Of a stretch of 50,942 nucleotides of DNA, positions 2,470 to 8,666 are shown in pieces (position 1 is the first letter of the stretch; every line of letters starts with the position of its first letter). This DNA comes from an uncultured Thermoplasmata archaeon (GTDB taxonomy: Archaea > Thermoplasmatota > Thermoplasmata > Halarchaeoplasmatales > Halarchaeoplasmataceae), in the NCBI GenBank assembly GCA_964399335.1, contig CAYNQI010000005.1, forward strand, positions 1-50,942, given 5' to 3'. The position numbers and the translations under genes are program-made. Below the pieces are notes generated by a model. That model saw only the letters and a program-made list of their open reading frames with translations, was not told the DNA's origin and did not search any database.

Positions 2470-2751
2470 CTATAGCAGTTTAGTTAATATACTTTCATGT
2501 TTTCTTAAATTAACCTTATCTCCTTTAGATATATTTAATTTGTTTATATCTTGTTCTCTTAACATTATTCCCCCATCATCAACAAAATTATCTGAGAATG
2601 CACTTACCAATATATCTTTAGTTTTAGAGCTTACTATGGCTAACTCACCCTCATCTAAATTAAGTTCTTCAATTGTATTAGGGTTAACTCTAGCCCTTCC
2701 CCCGACCTTCACCGGACTTCTGTCCACCGTTAGAACTTTCTCTTTTGTCAT
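2470..2751 (-). CDS. Small stand-alone double-psi beta-barrel protein, Cdc48/VAT N-domain-like
   Basis: The pattern G-RARV-P-TIEELNL-EGE-A-V...V...D..V..G.I.L.......L.I.KGD.V.LRK resembles CDC48_N/DPBB. Pattern recognition only. Confidence 0.6.
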   Translation of the reverse strand: MTKEKVLTVDRSPVKVGGRARVNPNTIEELNLDEGELAIVSSKTKDILVSAFSDNFVDDGGIMLREQDINKLNISKGDKVNLRKHESILTKLL

Positions 2752-2796: not shown

Positions 2797-3492
2797 TTAT
2801 GACTTAGGTTTAGGATATCCTAAGGAGAGGTATTTATCCGCTGCTTCTTTGCAGTTTCTGCTTTCCCATACTCTTTCTATATCGGGGTTTAAAAGTAGAT
2901 TTTTAATTTCTTCAACCAGTCTTTTTAAATTACAAGAAAAACTCCAGTTTTCTATATAATCTATTTTAATCTCTCCTCCCTTTTTAGGTAATTTTATATT
3001 AGGATGGAATATATCGGTTTCCCATCTTATTTTTGGACGGAAATATGGATATGATCTAGGGATTTTCAATTCAAAAATATGCTGGAATGATAAAGCGATA
3101 TTGGAACCGATCTTTACTGGTCCGGGTGTATTAATAACTTTAAAAGTACATGAAAATGATTCATCGTCAAAATGTTCCTCTATAACTTCTACATCATTTT
3201 CCTTTATTATATCCATTTCATTTTTCAATCGAGATTCCCAGATTTGCTTGGGTAGGCGTATATCTTTATTTTTCCTTTCAATCAGCACAAAATCTCCTTC
3301 TTTGATATCTGTCCTTGACCATTTTTGATCCAAGCACAATTCAGATCCATTATACAATATTTTAATTTCCTCTTCAATATCCCAGTATGAAATGATTCCA
3401 GAGATACTTTCGATAATTTTTTCTGTAGGATCAATCCTTATTGAGATTCTGCTTCCCTCTCCTTGTTTTCCTATCTCGATATCAAAGGACAT
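2797..3492 (-). CDS. Ubiquitin-like (beta-grasp) domain fused to a UBC/E2-fold domain, with the catalytic Cys position occupied by Lys (UEV-like)
   Basis: aa 1-74 align by eye with ubiquitin (ISIRIDPTEKI...ILYNGSEL...DIKEGDFVLI). aa ~80-222 carry the E2 hallmarks YPYFRPKIRWETDIFHPNI, GEIKIDYI..W and LLLNPD. Confidence 0.82.
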   Translation of the reverse strand: MSFDIEIGKQGEGSRISIRIDPTEKIIESISGIISYWDIEEEIKILYNGSELCLDQKWSRTDIKEGDFVLIERKNKDIRLPKQIWESRLKNEMDIIKENDVEVIEEHFDDESFSCTFKVINTPGPVKIGSNIALSFQHIFELKIPRSYPYFRPKIRWETDIFHPNIKLPKKGGEIKIDYIENWSFSCNLKRLVEEIKNLLLNPDIERVWESRNCKEAADKYLSLGYPKPKS

Positions 3493-3512
3493 AGATTCGG
3501 TTATTGGTAATC

Positions 3513-3528
3513 ATTTATATTGTTTTTT
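3513..3528 (-). promoter_or_regulatory. BRE/TATA-like promoter for a probably leaderless Ubl-E2 transcript
   Basis: The minus strand reads AAAAAACA-ATATAAAT about 21 nt upstream of the ATG at 3492. Confidence 0.5.
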
Positions 3529-3728
3529 GTCTTTCTTAATCTTTAATTTGAACTTTTGATCTAGATTTAAGAAAGTTCTAAATATCAACAATCTCCAATA
3601 TCTTGTTTCCGAAAAGTATAAATCACCATAAACCGGTTGGAAAACCCCGACAATAGAAAGGTTTTTGAAGTGAATTCGCTTATAGAATTAATGAGGAATC
3701 AACCTTCGGATTGCGGAGATGAAATATC

Positions 3729-6700
3729 TTGGCTGGAAAATATCTAAAAGCAAGACAACTCGCAAAAGAGATTGAAAAAAAGGCAAAAAAAACTGCCGAG
3801 AAAAAGAAAAAAGCTAAAGAGGGTTTAGAACAGGCAGAGGAGTTGCTGGACACATCTGAAGATTTAGGTATAGATATATCTGAAGTTGATGGAATTATTA
3901 AGGATGCTCGTGAAGATTTTGAAGATAAGAAATTTGAAGAATCCTCTAAAAAAATAAATCAATGTTTAGATGGTTTACAAGAAATTTATTCTGAAAAATT
4001 AGATGAAATGATAGAGGATATCAAGGACCTTCATGATTATTTAGATCTAGAAATAGAAGAAACTGATTATGAGGAAATGTTAAATGAAGCAAATAAACTT
4101 TTTGACCAGGGTAAGTATAAAGAGTCTATTATTAAAACTGATGAAATTTTTACATACGTGAAAAAAGATGTTGAAGAGCTTTATGAAGATTGGTTATATG
4201 AAATTGAATCTAAAATAGAAACGTTAAGAACTTTAAATGGTGATATTAATAAATTTGAACAAAGTATATCTTCTGCCGAGGATTTATTGGACGAATTTGA
4301 AATTGAAAAAGGAAAGCAAGCTTTAGATTCATTAGAAGATGAGATTAACCGAGAATTAAAAAATATTGTTACCGGAAAGATTGAGGAAATCGAAAAGATT
4401 GAGGAATTATTGCGTAAAAATGGTATATCTACTAAAGATGTTGAGGAAACAATTAGCGAAATTAAGGCAAAAAATAAAAAAAATGAGTATGCTGAAATAG
4501 TCAATCTTTTTGGAAAAATCGAAAGAGAGCTCAGTGATAGGAAAGATGAGTTAGTATCCAAAATGGTTAAAAAATTAAGAGATGAGATTGAAAAGGCTAG
4601 AGAACTTGGAGCGCCTCAAAGTAAGATAAAAAGCATAAATGAAAAAATAAATGAACTACAAGAAATAGAAAATTTTGGTAATATCATTAATCTGATTGAT
4701 GAACTTTTTGAGAAGGTAGAAGAAGCTAAATTTCATAAAGTTTTGAAGACAATTGCAGAGTCTAGGGAGAATTTTATTAAAGCAAAGGAGATCGGGATCG
4801 ATATTACTGAACCTATGGATATTCTGAATAAGGCAAGAACTTCTTTGAAAGAAGGAAATCATAGAGAAGCTTTGGACTGGGCTAAAAAAGGAAGAAAAAA
4901 AGTTCGGGATATGGTAAAGGAACATGAAAAAACAGAAAATGAATTAGAAAAAATTAAAGAAATAACGGAAGGTTTGAATGAATTCGAACTAGATTTATCT
5001 TTTGTTGATGATAGAATTGAAAAAGCTGAAGAATATCTTGAACAAAAAGAATATTCTAAATCTAGAGAAATATTAGAAGAAATTGAAAGTGATATAGATG
5101 AAAAAGCTTATGAAAAAATTATGGAATTTGTCGAAGAATTTGAGGTAAATATATTGACTTTAGAAAGGATGGGTTTAGATAGCGGTGAATATACAGAGAT
5201 GCTTGAAGAGGCTATCGCTAATACCAAAACCATGGATTATATTGAGGCCGGTAAAATAGCTTTGAAAGGTAAAAATCAAATTTTAGAGAAAATTAAAAAA
5301 GAGATCGATTTTAAAATAGAAACTGTTTCCAGATTAGCAGATAATATAAAAGAATCGATAGATTCTGAAGACATTGAAGATGAATTAAAAAACGTAGAAA
5401 ATCTAATTGACAAGGCATTAAAAGAAAAAGACAAATCCAATTATAAAACATCCTATGATAAACTTCAAGAAGCAGAAGAGACGGTAAATGAGTGGCAAGT
5501 AGGAGAAGCTGATCAAAAGTATAATGAAGCAAAGGAAACTTTAGAATTAGTCGAAGATATAGACTTTGAGGGTATAGATATAGATGATTATCTGACCAGA
5601 TTAGAAGACGCTAAATTGGATATAGAGGGTAAAAATTATCCAGAGGCAATCCAAAAGATCGATGAAATACTTGATGATTTAAATGTTAAATTAAAAAAGA
5701 AATCAGAAGAGTTCTTTACGAATGCAAAAGTCGAGGTTGTGAAGGCAAAAAAGTCTGGTGTGGATATAAATAAGATGAGAGAGGAACTAATTGAATGTAA
5801 AAAAAATATAAAACAAGAAAATTTTACTAAGGCTATTAGTTTATCTGTAAATGTTGAAAAAAGAGCTAAAAAAGTTATAGGCGAACGTTCTGAAACTAAA
5901 AAACTCATCTCAGATCTAAATGAGACTGTAAGAAAATTAAGAGAATCAGATGATTTACAAAATTTAAAACCAGCTATAAAGTTACTCAAAGAAGCTAAAA
6001 GCAGTTTTCAACAGAGAAATTATGTTGAATCCAAAGAACTAGCAAACAAGACTAAGATGAAACTAGATGAGTTGAAAATGAAAAATGAATTTGAGACTTA
6101 TCACGATAACTATAAAAAGTTATTAAAAAGAGCTGATATAATCTCTGTAGATACTGAAGACATTCAAGATGAAGTCAATACAATTTTAAATAAAGCAGAT
6201 GGAAATGATTATAGTTCTGCAATAGAAATGATTCAAGAAATAAATGATGAATTATTAAATAAAATTAAAGATTCTGTAGAACCGAGGATAAATCATACTC
6301 AAGAAATTATAGAATCTGCTAAAGAAATTGGAATAGATATATCTTCCCAAGAAGTATTACTAAGCAAAGCTAAAGAAAATTTTGAAAATAATGAATTCAA
6401 GGCCGCCGTAGAGAAAATAAATGAATGTCAAAATGAGATCCAAGAGATTAGAGACCAAAGTAAAAAGGCCGCCCGGAGTGTGAAGAAGGCAAAAAATAGG
6501 TTAGAAGAAGCTATGGATATTCATGCAGATATATCAACTGCTAGAAAAGAATTACAAGTTTCTATGGAAGCAATAAAAAATGATGAATATGAAAAAGCAA
6601 TTGATACTGCTGAAAAAGCATTGAGCAGTATTCGATTAGCTGAGAGGAATAGAGTTGAAAAAATATTGTCTACATTTAAAGAAAAGATTAATGAGATGAG

Positions 6701-8114
6701 GGTAGATGGAGTAAACACATCATTTGCTGATAATTTAATAGCACGTGCTGAAAAAGCCAAGAAAAATGAAAATTATAAGGAAGCAATAAATCTAGCTATG
6801 CAAAGTGAAGGTGAGCTAGAAAGGATTGAGTTACAGCAAGATATTGCGAAAAGAAGTATCTCTACAACTACAAATAAATTGTCTAAGGCAAAAAACGAGG
6901 GAATGAATATTGAAAAACCAGAAAAGATTTTAAAAGAAGCAAAAAAAGCATATGATGGTGGTTTTTATGTCAAAGCTTTTGATAAAGCAGTAAAAGCTGG
7001 TGAGATACTAAATAATATAATTAAAGCTTATACAGAATCTAAAAGCATTTTAGATGATATCGAACAAGTATTAGATAAGTTAAAAGTTCTTGGTATGGAA
7101 GAAATTGAACTTATGGATAAATATTCAAAAGCTGTTGATGCATTTGAAAATGATAATTATGAAAAATCATATTCTTTAGCCAATAGGGCTAAAGAAACAT
7201 TAAGTAACGTCAAAAAAGAATTGCCAGACCAGATTTCAGACATGGAAGATGTTATCGATGATCTAAAATCAAAGAGAGATGTTGGTAAGTCTGAAAAGTT
7301 ATTGAACAAAGCTAAGGCTAATTTAAAAATGGGCAATATTTTAGAGGTTTTTGATCTTCTAGCTAAAGCTAAAGAGGAGTATGGTGGGAAATATTTCGAA
7401 GAGTATGAACAATTCATCGGGGAAGCATCAAAATTAGTTAAGAAAGCAAATAAATTTGGAACCGACGTTAGTGAGGCTAAAGAAATTATAAATGAGGCAA
7501 GAGGTTTAAGAGATGAAAATATCAAAAAAGCTAGTTTGAGGGCTAAAGAAGCTTTAGTTGAGATTGAGAAAATACTTGCACCTTACAGCCCTAATATTGA
7601 GGTAGAGATGAACGATAAACTTAGACTTGATACGTGGAATAAAGTGAATATGTCTGTAAAAAACACAGGCGGAGGAGTTGCTAAATCACCATCTATAAAA
7701 ATAAAAGGTGCAAAGAATAAAGATATAGAATTACCCTCTATGTTAAAAGCAAACGAAAGTTTTGAAACTGAAACAAAAATTAAACCTACTGAGGATAAAG
7801 TGATTATTGAAGGAGTTGGGACAAGAATTTTTGATAATAAAGATATATCATACCAATTAGAGATTGAAGTTACTGAAAGTAATTTTAAAATAATTGATGC
7901 AACCGGAAATGAAAAATGTGGTATATGTAAAGGTGAAATTAAAAAAGGTTTAGACGTTATTATTTGTGATTGTGAATCACCATATCATAAGTTGTGTGGT
8001 GAAAGAAAGGGTGAATGTCCAGAATGCGGGCTAGATTTTACCTTAGATGAGGAAGAAAAGAAGGAAGAGAAGGGAGGCAAAAAAGCCTCTAAAAGAGTAG
8101 CCCTTCGGATCTGA
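3729..8114 (+). CDS. Giant helical-repeat/coiled-coil protein with a C-terminal Ig-like (CARDB-type) domain and a prokaryotic RING-type zinc finger
   Basis: TTG start. About 1280 aa of E/K-rich repeats (A...G.D......L..A...), then a beta-rich segment (SVKNTGGGVAK), then C-x2-C-x12-C-x-C-x4-H-x2-C-x6-C-x2-C at 7917-8027. Confidence 0.78.
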   Translation: MAGKYLKARQLAKEIEKKAKKTAEKKKKAKEGLEQAEELLDTSEDLGIDISEVDGIIKDAREDFEDKKFEESSKKINQCLDGLQEIYSEKLDEMIEDIKDLHDYLDLEIEETDYEEMLNEANKLFDQGKYKESIIKTDEIFTYVKKDVEELYEDWLYEIESKIETLRTLNGDINKFEQSISSAEDLLDEFEIEKGKQALDSLEDEINRELKNIVTGKIEEIEKIEELLRKNGISTKDVEETISEIKAKNKKNEYAEIVNLFGKIERELSDRKDELVSKMVKKLRDEIEKARELGAPQSKIKSINEKINELQEIENFGNIINLIDELFEKVEEAKFHKVLKTIAESRENFIKAKEIGIDITEPMDILNKARTSLKEGNHREALDWAKKGRKKVRDMVKEHEKTENELEKIKEITEGLNEFELDLSFVDDRIEKAEEYLEQKEYSKSREILEEIESDIDEKAYEKIMEFVEEFEVNILTLERMGLDSGEYTEMLEEAIANTKTMDYIEAGKIALKGKNQILEKIKKEIDFKIETVSRLADNIKESIDSEDIEDELKNVENLIDKALKEKDKSNYKTSYDKLQEAEETVNEWQVGEADQKYNEAKETLELVEDIDFEGIDIDDYLTRLEDAKLDIEGKNYPEAIQKIDEILDDLNVKLKKKSEEFFTNAKVEVVKAKKSGVDINKMREELIECKKNIKQENFTKAISLSVNVEKRAKKVIGERSETKKLISDLNETVRKLRESDDLQNLKPAIKLLKEAKSSFQQRNYVESKELANKTKMKLDELKMKNEFETYHDNYKKLLKRADIISVDTEDIQDEVNTILNKADGNDYSSAIEMIQEINDELLNKIKDSVEPRINHTQEIIESAKEIGIDISSQEVLLSKAKENFENNEFKAAVEKINECQNEIQEIRDQSKKAARSVKKAKNRLEEAMDIHADISTARKELQVSMEAIKNDEYEKAIDTAEKALSSIRLAERNRVEKILSTFKEKINEMRVDGVNTSFADNLIARAEKAKKNENYKEAINLAMQSEGELERIELQQDIAKRSISTTTNKLSKAKNEGMNIEKPEKILKEAKKAYDGGFYVKAFDKAVKAGEILNNIIKAYTESKSILDDIEQVLDKLKVLGMEEIELMDKYSKAVDAFENDNYEKSYSLANRAKETLSNVKKELPDQISDMEDVIDDLKSKRDVGKSEKLLNKAKANLKMGNILEVFDLLAKAKEEYGGKYFEEYEQFIGEASKLVKKANKFGTDVSEAKEIINEARGLRDENIKKASLRAKEALVEIEKILAPYSPNIEVEMNDKLRLDTWNKVNMSVKNTGGGVAKSPSIKIKGAKNKDIELPSMLKANESFETETKIKPTEDKVIIEGVGTRIFDNKDISYQLEIEVTESNFKIIDATGNEKCGICKGEIKKGLDVIICDCESPYHKLCGERKGECPECGLDFTLDEEEKKEEKGGKKASKRVALRI

Positions 8115-8135: not shown

Positions 8136-8666
8136 TTGGGAATACTCATTCATGCTTGTTGTGCACCCTGTTTGACTTACACTTATGAATATTTCAAAGA
8201 AAATTTTTCTGAGGACCCATCTGTTTTGTGGTTTAATCCAAATATCCATCCCTTTAAGGAATATGAGAAAAGGTTAGGATCGCTTAAGAAATATCAGGGT
8301 GAGATGGATATTGAAATTATATATAAAGATAATTACGATTTAGAAAACTTTTTAGAAGGAGCGTTAGGGAAAAATCCTAGGTGTCAGTTTTGTTATAGAT
8401 TGAGATTATCTAAAGCAGCTGAGGTCGCAAAAGAAAATGGTTTCAATGCATATACCACTACGTTGACTATTTCACCTTACCAGGACCATGATTTGATTAA
8501 AAAAATAGGTCGAGAGGAAGGCGAAAAAATAGGTATTGAATTCATATATGTTGATCTTACCGATGGATTTTATAAAAGCCATGATATTGCAGACGAGATG
8601 GATCTTTATAAACAAGGATATTGTGGATGCATTTTCAGTGAGATGGACAGATACAAAAAAGAGTAA
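8136..8666 (+). CDS. queH: Epoxyqueuosine reductase QueH (DUF208) family Fe-S protein
   Basis: Motifs HACCAPC, NPNIHP..EY..R, RCQFCYRLRL, TTTL..SP and YKQGYCGCIFS. TTG start with an upstream GGGGTGA SD. Confidence 0.85.
   Translation: MGILIHACCAPCLTYTYEYFKENFSEDPSVLWFNPNIHPFKEYEKRLGSLKKYQGEMDIEIIYKDNYDLENFLEGALGKNPRCQFCYRLRLSKAAEVAKENGFNAYTTTLTISPYQDHDLIKKIGREEGEKIGIEFIYVDLTDGFYKSHDIADEMDLYKQGYCGCIFSEMDRYKKE

Follow-up and report, generated by a model that had tools for sequence, protein, structure and literature searches.

The subject of this analysis is the giant RING gene of an uncultured Thermoplasmata archaeon, which occupies positions 3729-8114 on the plus strand of a 50,942-nucleotide stretch of DNA (the whole of which is called the window here) and encodes a protein of 1461 amino acids (aa). 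The genome and the protein are labelled G000 and P0001, respectively. A rod of tandem helical repeats is followed in this protein by an immunoglobulin-like (Ig-like) domain, a RING finger and a short tail, and next to its gene stands a divergent one (2797-3492, minus strand) in which a ubiquitin-like domain (Ubl) is fused to an E2 domain devoid of the catalytic cysteine (pseudoE2). It is proposed, with an estimated probability of about 0.55, that the RING finger has been kept as a docking site for the Ubl-pseudoE2 and that the protein acts as a non-catalytic adaptor on a scaffold of fixed length, the tail recruiting another partner. The RING has been retained beside the co-inherited fusion gene despite a tagging cascade that looks decayed, which argues for a retained binding role. 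The architecture itself (rod, Ig-like domain, RING and tail) had been described in an earlier interpretation of the same DNA, referred to as the sequence-only reading, and is borne out by the sequence, the homologues and AlphaFold2 (AF2) models; given approximately 50 full-length homologues and the conservation of the zinc ligands, it lies far beyond chance.

The RING finger

The finger (aa 1394-1437, positions 7908-8039, plus strand) reads C1397-G-I-C1400-x12-C1413-D-C1415-x4-H1420-x2-C1423-x6-C1430-P-E-C1433, exactly the spacing noticed in the sequence-only reading (CGIC-x12-CDC-x4-H-x2-C-x6-CPEC). Seven of the ten cysteines of the protein are found inside it. Zinc binding is predicted from the spacing, and the ligands are conserved among 45 aligned homologues, each of the seven cysteines in 42-43 of them and His1420 in 39. 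Residues 1394-1430 match the Pfam family Prok-RING_1 (PF14446) with 30.5 bits against a gathering cut-off of 29.1 (33.7 bits in the genome scan), and the eukaryotic zf-RING_2 family scores just 11 bits on the finger. When the finger was compared by sequence with the PDB, the RING-H2 domain of Arkadia/RNF165 came out best (E about 0.005), followed by the PHD finger of Pygopus (about 0.01).

The AF2 model of the isolated finger (aa 1380-1441) has a predicted local distance difference test (pLDDT) score of 87.6. Its top Foldseek matches are ARK2C/RNF165, ZNRF1, RNF12, RNF38 and RNF13 (TMq 0.64-0.69, probability 1.00), mostly from structures solved with a bound E2; every entry from rank 1 to rank 21 is a RING E3, the RING-H2 domains coming first. 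In VIA the finger model reached Z values of 7.0 and 6.4 over 56-58 residues, which are middling on the VIA scale. After the RINGs, the folds that match best are PARP zinc fingers and C1 domains, and among the structural matches listed for the finger model no zinc ribbon leads and no PHD finger occurs. Set against PHD fingers, the ligand order is C4HC3 and the C6-C7 spacing amounts to 6 residues, whereas PHD fingers have 12 or more. On the Prok-RING_1 match and the fold matches a generic zinc ribbon was rejected for the finger, and a PHD finger is considered unlikely. The sequence-only reading had left the choice between Prok-RING_1 and PHD for the C-terminus to be made, and had considered a zinc ribbon deprived of E2-binding hydrophobic positions as the outcome that would speak against a RING. 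The choice falls on the RING, with Prok-RING_1 above its gathering score and RING-H2 ligases best by fold, and the E2-contact position C1+2 is hydrophobic (Ile, Val, Leu or Tyr) in 39 of 43 homologues, with Pro at C7+1 in 29 of the 43. Judged by its model, the finger is a true cross-brace RING (C4HC3), although not a textbook catalytic one.

The family Prok-RING_1 (prokaryotic RING finger family 1) is associated with the 2011 work of Burroughs, Iyer and Aravind (Mol Biosyst 7:2261). Its distribution was followed in a sample of 401 Thermoplasmatota genomes, many of which are incomplete, and the phyletic patterns given below rest on few, related genomes. The best Prok-RING_1 scores in this sample (57-60 bits) belong to the C-termini of giant proteins of about 1,590-1,600 aa in family f4, three of them on single-contig genomes, and the finger has therefore been within the view of Pfam since the family was defined. 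Several families of the phylum also have such fingers on many different large open reading frames of about 450-5,400 aa, and in some genomes there are 5-9 matches. The Prok-RING_1 finger is a widely reused module across the phylum.

Rod, Ig-like domain and C-terminal tail

Translation of the gene begins at a TTG codon preceded by GGAG about 11 nucleotides upstream, and the stop codon is at 8112-8114. The homologues begin at the equivalent position with M-x-G-[KR]-YLKARQLAKE, conserved from residue 3, and since this N-terminus is shared the TTG start is considered sound. Residues 1-30 (3729-3818) form a basic N-terminal helix with an isoelectric point (pI) of 10.35 and the pattern YLKARQLAKE-x-E-x-KAK, which in the conservation profile is among the best-conserved segments and is retained also in homologues that have no RING.

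The rod (aa about 31-1285, positions 3819-7583) is acidic, with a pI of 4.8 and a D+E content of 23.9%. A single conserved repeat served as the seed of a profile, which was then refined by iteration over the protein; the resulting hidden Markov model (HMM) finds 17-18 units directly, and their regular spacing implies 20 tandem units of about 63 aa. The helical repeats of some 1280 aa mentioned in the sequence-only reading are thus resolved into 20 units with a defined period. Residues 960-1461, which include five rod repeats, were modelled by AF2 with a 43-row family alignment (mean pLDDT 86.3). In this model each rod unit is a three-helix element, in which a helix of about 40 residues common to neighbouring units is followed by a 15-residue helix. 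The rod as a whole would be a chain of three-helix bundles, the N-terminal 960 aa being extrapolated from the repeat HMM and the five modelled repeats, and its length may be 50-60 nm. Conservation within the rod is highest at aa 331-390, 661-690 and 991-1050.

Comparison of the rod with solved structures by VIA-align gave the small three-helix bundle AF1782 (Z 10.8) and the rods EzrA (Z 9.4) and EbhA (Z 9.0); VIA Z values of about 9-11 fall in the noise range for helical proteins, so these matches denote analogy and not kinship. Pfam and NCBIfam yielded on the rod just a weak SAXB match (36.9 bits against a cut-off of 95), and no spectrin family of Pfam was matched at E <= 1, the resemblance of the 63-aa repeat to spectrin lying in its predicted topology only. 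Matches in the ESM Atlas were limited to unnamed Thermoplasmatota clusters, every one with a score below 0.9. No Walker A motif was found in the 1461 aa by a strict or a loose pattern, as the sequence-only reading had stated. Its other negative statement, on transmembrane (TM) helices, also holds: no TM segment and no signal peptide were found, and no TM helix is expected because the highest 19-aa Kyte-Doolittle hydropathy is only 0.66.

The rod is followed by a confidently predicted Ig-like β-sandwich (aa about 1288-1390, positions 7590-7898) in which AF2 places seven to eight strands at aa about 1290-1390 (model residues 331-431), with a pLDDT of 84-93 for the block. This agrees with the sandwich-like segment that the sequence-only reading had placed at about 7590-7875. 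In Foldseek and VIA it resembles the FW domain of NBR1 (4ole), the FixG-related 2r39, DsbD-N, PKD and MG domains (Z about 8).

Behind the finger, a charged K/E-rich linker (aa 1438-1454, positions 8040-8090) leads to the C-terminal peptide K-R-V-A-L-R-I-COOH (8091-8111). AF2 predicts the last 22 or so residues to be disordered (pLDDT about 40). In the homologue alignment the linker varies in length and composition, from K/E-rich in close relatives to as many as about 100 residues of P/A/T/E in distant ones, while most homologues, even at 23-24% identity, keep the tail in the form [KR][KR]-[VLM]-x-[LM]-x-[ILF]-COOH. The RVALRI tail of the sequence-only reading, whose conservation was left there to be checked, is therefore a conserved motif. 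It is absent in the most distant homologue group and in the operon-type giants described below. The alternating hydrophobic residues suggest a strand added to a partner's sheet and not an amphipathic helix.

Two candidates for the partner of the tail were considered. A 93-aa Cdc48-N-like barrel (2470-2751, minus strand) is not supported: the query used detected it within the class only in the family of the archaeon studied, and the other tail-bearing loci examined do not have it. Only among close relatives does the barrel accompany TrkA/TrkH and the giant gene; elsewhere the same query finds it most often in f25, an unrelated family (19 of 24 genomes), and it probably stands outside the RING system. 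The Ubl-pseudoE2 as the sole partner is weakened as a candidate by genome G401, which carries tail and RING without a match to UQ_con, the Pfam family of E2 proteins.

Relatives encoded in complete operons

Residues 37-1437 of the protein are collinear with residues 1744-3147 of a 3,155-aa protein of locus L020, from another class of the same phylum (BLASTP E 1e-36 over about 1,400 aa), and a genome scan with aa 1001-1437 also matches the operon-type giant (E 8e-33). At L020 the gene order is a ThiF-type E1, the giant RING gene, a Ubl with a terminal GGG, an E2 in which HPN and the catalytic Cys are present, and JAB; at L021 it is E1-giant-E2-JAB, and L022 is partial (giant ... E2-JAB). Because these members of about 3,100 aa hold the RING (E3-position) slot in Ubl operons, the protein is, on sequence kinship, related to the ligase part of a ubiquitin-like tagging system of archaea, and an E3-type origin is thereby supported. 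The operon giants of L020, L021 and L022 share with it the repeat type, the sandwich and the RING, and their Ubl and E2 are homologous to the halves of the fusion in the window. They differ in size (about 3,100 aa, about 45 repeats) and in the lack of the KRVALRI tail, and in these operons the E2 cysteine is kept, the GG of the Ubl is free, and E1 and JAB are present.

In eight genomes, which belong to four families, the giant gene has an E2 gene next to it, divergently in f1 and within operons in f13, f28 and f31. The giant gene of the window does not lie inside an E1-Ubl-E2-JAB operon: it is flanked by the divergent Ubl-pseudoE2 gene and by QueH, and no E1 or JAB gene is found in its neighbourhood. 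In other families of the same class there is a compact cassette of E1, Ubl (...PDPEGG), E2 (with Cys) and JAB, without a RING gene.

Several further observations were made around these loci. The JAB protein of L020 (L020:14149-15069, plus strand) has a weak Yip1-like C-terminal region and is possibly membrane-associated, and just upstream of the L020 E1 gene lies a gene for a 910-aa Ig-repeat protein of the He_PIG/PKD/Big_9 type (L020:157-2889, plus strand). AP_endonuc_2-like and SIS genes flank the E1-Ubl-E2-JAB cassette in several families (L025-L030; L025:1632-3220). The same pair (54-56% identity; L007:1813-3400) also lies upstream of the giant RING gene of L007, whose product bears the tail, at a distance of 2.6 kb; no remnants of E1, Ubl, E2 or JAB were found near that giant gene, and its genome has no UQ_con match.

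The Ubl-pseudoE2 fusion and the state of the cascade

The fusion gene matches Pfam UQ_con with 49 bits and Rad60-SLD weakly. Its HPN motif is kept and the catalytic position is Lys; across the four fusion copies that were read this position is K (window), H (L005), H (L009) and E (the fourth copy). Aligned with L020, the fusion falls into two collinear pieces that match the Ubl gene and the E2 gene there, which are separate and stand in the same order, so it can be said to have arisen by fusion of neighbouring genes. It is separated from the giant gene by a 236-bp divergent intergenic region common to both (3493-3728), in which A/T-rich stretches noted by eye at about 3513-3520 (for the minus-strand gene) and 3680-3689 (for the plus-strand gene) are candidate TATA-like elements.

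The fusion adjoins the giant gene in G000, L005, L009 and L042, lies elsewhere in the genome in G403, and was not found in G401 by a UQ_con search. Since the giant gene stays anchored at QueH-aIF2alpha-S27e across the clade, the fusion either came to stand beside it or was lost in some branches. In G403 the fusion (L046:329-979, minus strand) is divergent beside a gene for a 216-aa small Ras/Rab-like GTPase with the G1 motif GDGAVGKT (L046:1084-1791, plus strand).

As far as the other components are concerned, G000 contains one Prok-RING_1 match, one UQ_con match (the fusion), one ThiF match and a partial Prok-JAB at a contig end; besides the fused, non-conjugatable domain it has no Ubl-like match. 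Its only ThiF-type E1-like gene (334 aa) and a ThiI-like PP-loop gene bearing an SGGIDS motif are in convergent orientation (L003, G000:C61, 587-2220), which suggests that this ThiF would serve sulfur transfer and not protein tagging. The sister genome G096, 99% complete, also has a single UQ_con match, the Cys-less fusion, and it stands beside the giant gene. No operon-type JAB or E1 was found in G000 or G096, their ThiF matches being paralogues of 26-30% identity, and an active Cys-bearing E2, an E1 and a conjugatable Ubl were not detected as a set in G000 (80% complete) or G096 (99%). From gene content, the tagging cascade looks decayed in this lineage, with Ubl and E2 fused, the catalytic Cys gone, and the dedicated E1 and JAB not found.

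Distribution, length and neighbourhood of the family

The approximately 50 full-length homologues come from metagenome-assembled genomes of Thermoplasmata/Thermoplasmatota, and a match to the giant family is present in 42 of the 401 genomes; on sequence matches the family is Thermoplasmatota-wide. Down to 28% identity the homologues group at 1438-1486 aa, and 20 repeats are implied for every one of these. The C-terminal modules are distributed unevenly. Giants of f4 and f6 (1589-1623 aa) retain sandwich and RING, those of f7, f9 and f10 (1436-1466 aa) stop at the sandwich, f8 (1419 aa) and f2 (1396 aa) are also RING-less, and those of f3 finish in repeats only. As the profile of the family aligns with a RING-less f7 protein over 1356 columns (probability 100%), the conserved core is taken to be the rod with the basic N-terminal helix. 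The best longer match to the C-terminal 460 aa of the protein (E 8.8e-76) is P0056, a protein of 4337 aa from a 25-kb JGI contig, which is annotated with Prok-RING_1 and has about 66 repeats, detected or implied.

Of the genes downstream on the same strand, the one best conserved as a neighbour in this clade is a QueH homologue (8136-8666, plus strand; Pfam QueH E 1.8e-55), which adjoins the giant gene also in L005, L006, L009, L042, L044 and L045. In two relatives the QueH start overlaps the giant stop by 4 nucleotides (QueH at L005:10320-10838 and L042:7320-7841), which suggests co-transcription. QueH is an epoxyqueuosine reductase and archaea are not known to make queuosine, so a conserved QueH is odd. 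No neighbour gene kept across the entire giant family was found; there are three separate synteny groups with housekeeping neighbours, namely aIF2alpha/QueH, Cgi121/GHMP kinase and aIF5A.

Proposed function and alternatives

In the proposed mechanism the protein would be a cytoplasmic rod-like scaffold made of the basic N-terminal helix, 20 bundles, the Ig-like sandwich, the RING, a flexible linker and a docking peptide. The RING would bind the co-encoded Ubl-pseudoE2 permanently. With its Ubl tethered to an E2 fold, the fusion would physically resemble a charged E2~Ubl, and the pair of RING and Ubl-pseudoE2 would make a permanent adaptor at one end of the rod, the tail recruiting a further partner through strand addition.

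A number of facts weigh against this proposal. The linchpin Arg/Lys position (C8+1) is Gly in 33 of 43 RING homologues, and the C6-C7 loop has only 6 residues and no Trp-type contact. The proposed docking of the pseudoE2 on the RING is deduced from the neighbouring position of the genes, from their joint occurrence and from the affinity that RINGs are known to have for E2 proteins, and the genome in question (1.57 Mb) is 80% complete. Within the class, the families with an intact E1-Ubl-E2-JAB cassette are those with RING-less giants. Locus L006 has no fusion gene though RING and tail remain there, and homologues with RING and tail occur in genomes without a UQ_con match (0 of 4 genomes with a match in f4, 0 of 2 in f6, and G401). 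As the RING persists without UQ_con, it must have at least one E2-independent role.

This leads to the alternative rated next, in which RING and tail act without any E2, as a treble clef binding protein, lipid or nucleic acid on a cytoskeleton-like rod, and the Ubl-pseudoE2 is a non-binding, decaying relic. The genomes just mentioned are in its favour, as is the existence of rod-only and rod-plus-sandwich homologues of similar length, which places the core function in the rod; the repeated use of Prok-RING_1 at the C-terminus of many large proteins in the phylum and the PARP and C1 folds next in rank to the RINGs fit it as well, and according to the abstract of Burroughs et al. some prokaryotic RINGs are reportedly not related to ubiquitin. 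However, the pairing of E2 and giant RING genes occurs in two layouts (divergent in f1, within operons in f13, f28 and f31), the best fold matches are E2-binding RING-H2 domains, and the pseudoE2 keeps its frame, HPN and full UBC fold over relatives of 33-100% identity, which looks like selection and not decay. An E2-independent RING is regarded as possible rather than probable.

A bolder form of the scaffold idea sees the protein as a molecular ruler or cytoskeletal strut of exactly 20 bundles, perhaps 50-60 nm long and kept throughout a Thermoplasmata clade, with a fossilised E3:E2~Ubl at one end and a tail docking, by strand addition, a partner or the Ig-like domain of another copy. It seems rather doubtful at this stage. 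If it were true, parts of the ubiquitin system would have been re-used purely as a protein-protein adaptor.

It could also be argued that the RING is still a working E3, whose active E2 lies in the 20% of the genome that is not assembled or comes from a family not yet recognised. The RING ligands and two E2-contact positions are intact, the relatives lie in complete operons, and the partial Prok-JAB at a contig end belongs to a genome that is incomplete by one fifth. Nevertheless, the 99%-complete G096 has only the Cys-less fusion as E2, no operon-type JAB and distant ThiF paralogues; in G000 the only Ubl-like match is fused and non-conjugatable, and the sole ThiF, beside the ThiI-like PP-loop gene, appears to be of the sulfur-transfer type. 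A working ligase is thus improbable, and of the E3-like scaffold put forward in the sequence-only reading one part stands (a RING fold, and operon-embedded relatives of about 3,100 aa) and the other does not, for there is no sign of a working cascade and no linchpin Arg or Trp contact.

Hardly any credit is given to an SMC/Rad50-like coiled-coil ATPase or a secreted Ebh-like adhesin, for which size, helical content and the weak VIA similarity to the EbhA rod could be cited, since the sequence has no Walker A, signal peptide or TM segment, the bundles are short three-helix ones in place of a long antiparallel coiled coil, and no SMC or Rad50 family of Pfam matches at E <= 1. An expected mis-annotation as an SMC-like protein did not turn up either, the names in the source being "RING finger protein", "hypothetical protein" and "TPR repeat protein". 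The docking of the Ubl-pseudoE2 on a retained, non-catalytic RING is the reading preferred here.

Comparison with known systems

In the literature searched no paper on giant RING proteins of Thermoplasmatota was found, nor any description of the rod, the fixed count of 20 repeats, the Ig-like domain, the tail or the pairing with a pseudoE2. The finger belongs to the known Prok-RING_1 family. As a system, the operons of Caldiarchaeum and Asgard archaea come nearest among those known, and what sets the present one apart is a giant rod whose number of repeats is fixed, an Ig-like domain, a tail and a cascade that has collapsed to a pseudoE2 partner. Work on archaeal RING E3s has so far dealt with small proteins from Aigarchaeota and Asgard archaea, whereas in Thermoplasmatota the RING ends rods of 1,400-4,300 aa and occurs within complete E1-Ubl-E2-JAB operons. 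A natural series is formed by active operons, a Ubl-pseudoE2 fusion beside a RING, RING-only lineages without E2 and rod-only lineages. With this series it becomes testable how ubiquitin-type machinery is built onto scaffolds, what becomes of an E3 after the loss of its cascade, and whether pairs of pseudoE2 and RING serve as pure adaptors. The strict count of 20 repeats suggests a structural role in which length matters, and few known archaeal proteins have such a role.

As for the rod, the spectrin-like rods of EzrA (4uy3) and Ebh (2dgj) likewise have a long helix shared by successive bundles, as judged from the modelled repeats (VIA Z 9.0-9.4), but their repeat is of 106 aa against 63 here and there is no sequence relationship. 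As for the finger, the closest structural matches are the eukaryotic RING-H2 E3 domains of ARK2C/RNF165, ZNRF1, RNF12, RNF38 and RNF13, from which it differs in being C4HC3 and not C3H2C3, in its 6-residue last loop and in the Gly that replaces the linchpin Arg.

The operons of Caldiarchaeum and Asgard archaea carry a small RING finger protein (srfp) which is a demonstrated E3; its hydrophobic I30 is required for activity, and W58 and R69 both matter (Hennell James et al. 2017, PMC5654768). Like the operons of the Thermoplasmatota giants, they combine an archaeal RING with E1, E2, Ub(l) and a JAMM/Rpn11-type protease, and the hydrophobic C1+2 position of the giant family is taken as the equivalent of I30. 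Unlike srfp, the family has no equivalents of W58 and R69, its members are 20-60 times larger, and there is no active cascade in the lineage described here. In Asgard archaea, the UEV domain of UEV-Vps23 binds its RING E3 (bioRxiv 10.1101/2023.07.25.550441), and Thermoplasmatota E2s are placed deep in the archaeal E2 tree in the preprint. The E2 variants Mms2/Uev1 and the Asgard UEV-Vps23 resemble the arrangement in the window, where a Cys-less E2 fold is likewise retained beside a RING protein as a putative binding module; in the window, however, this pseudoE2 carries its own Ubl as a fusion, and a search for an active E2 partner found none.

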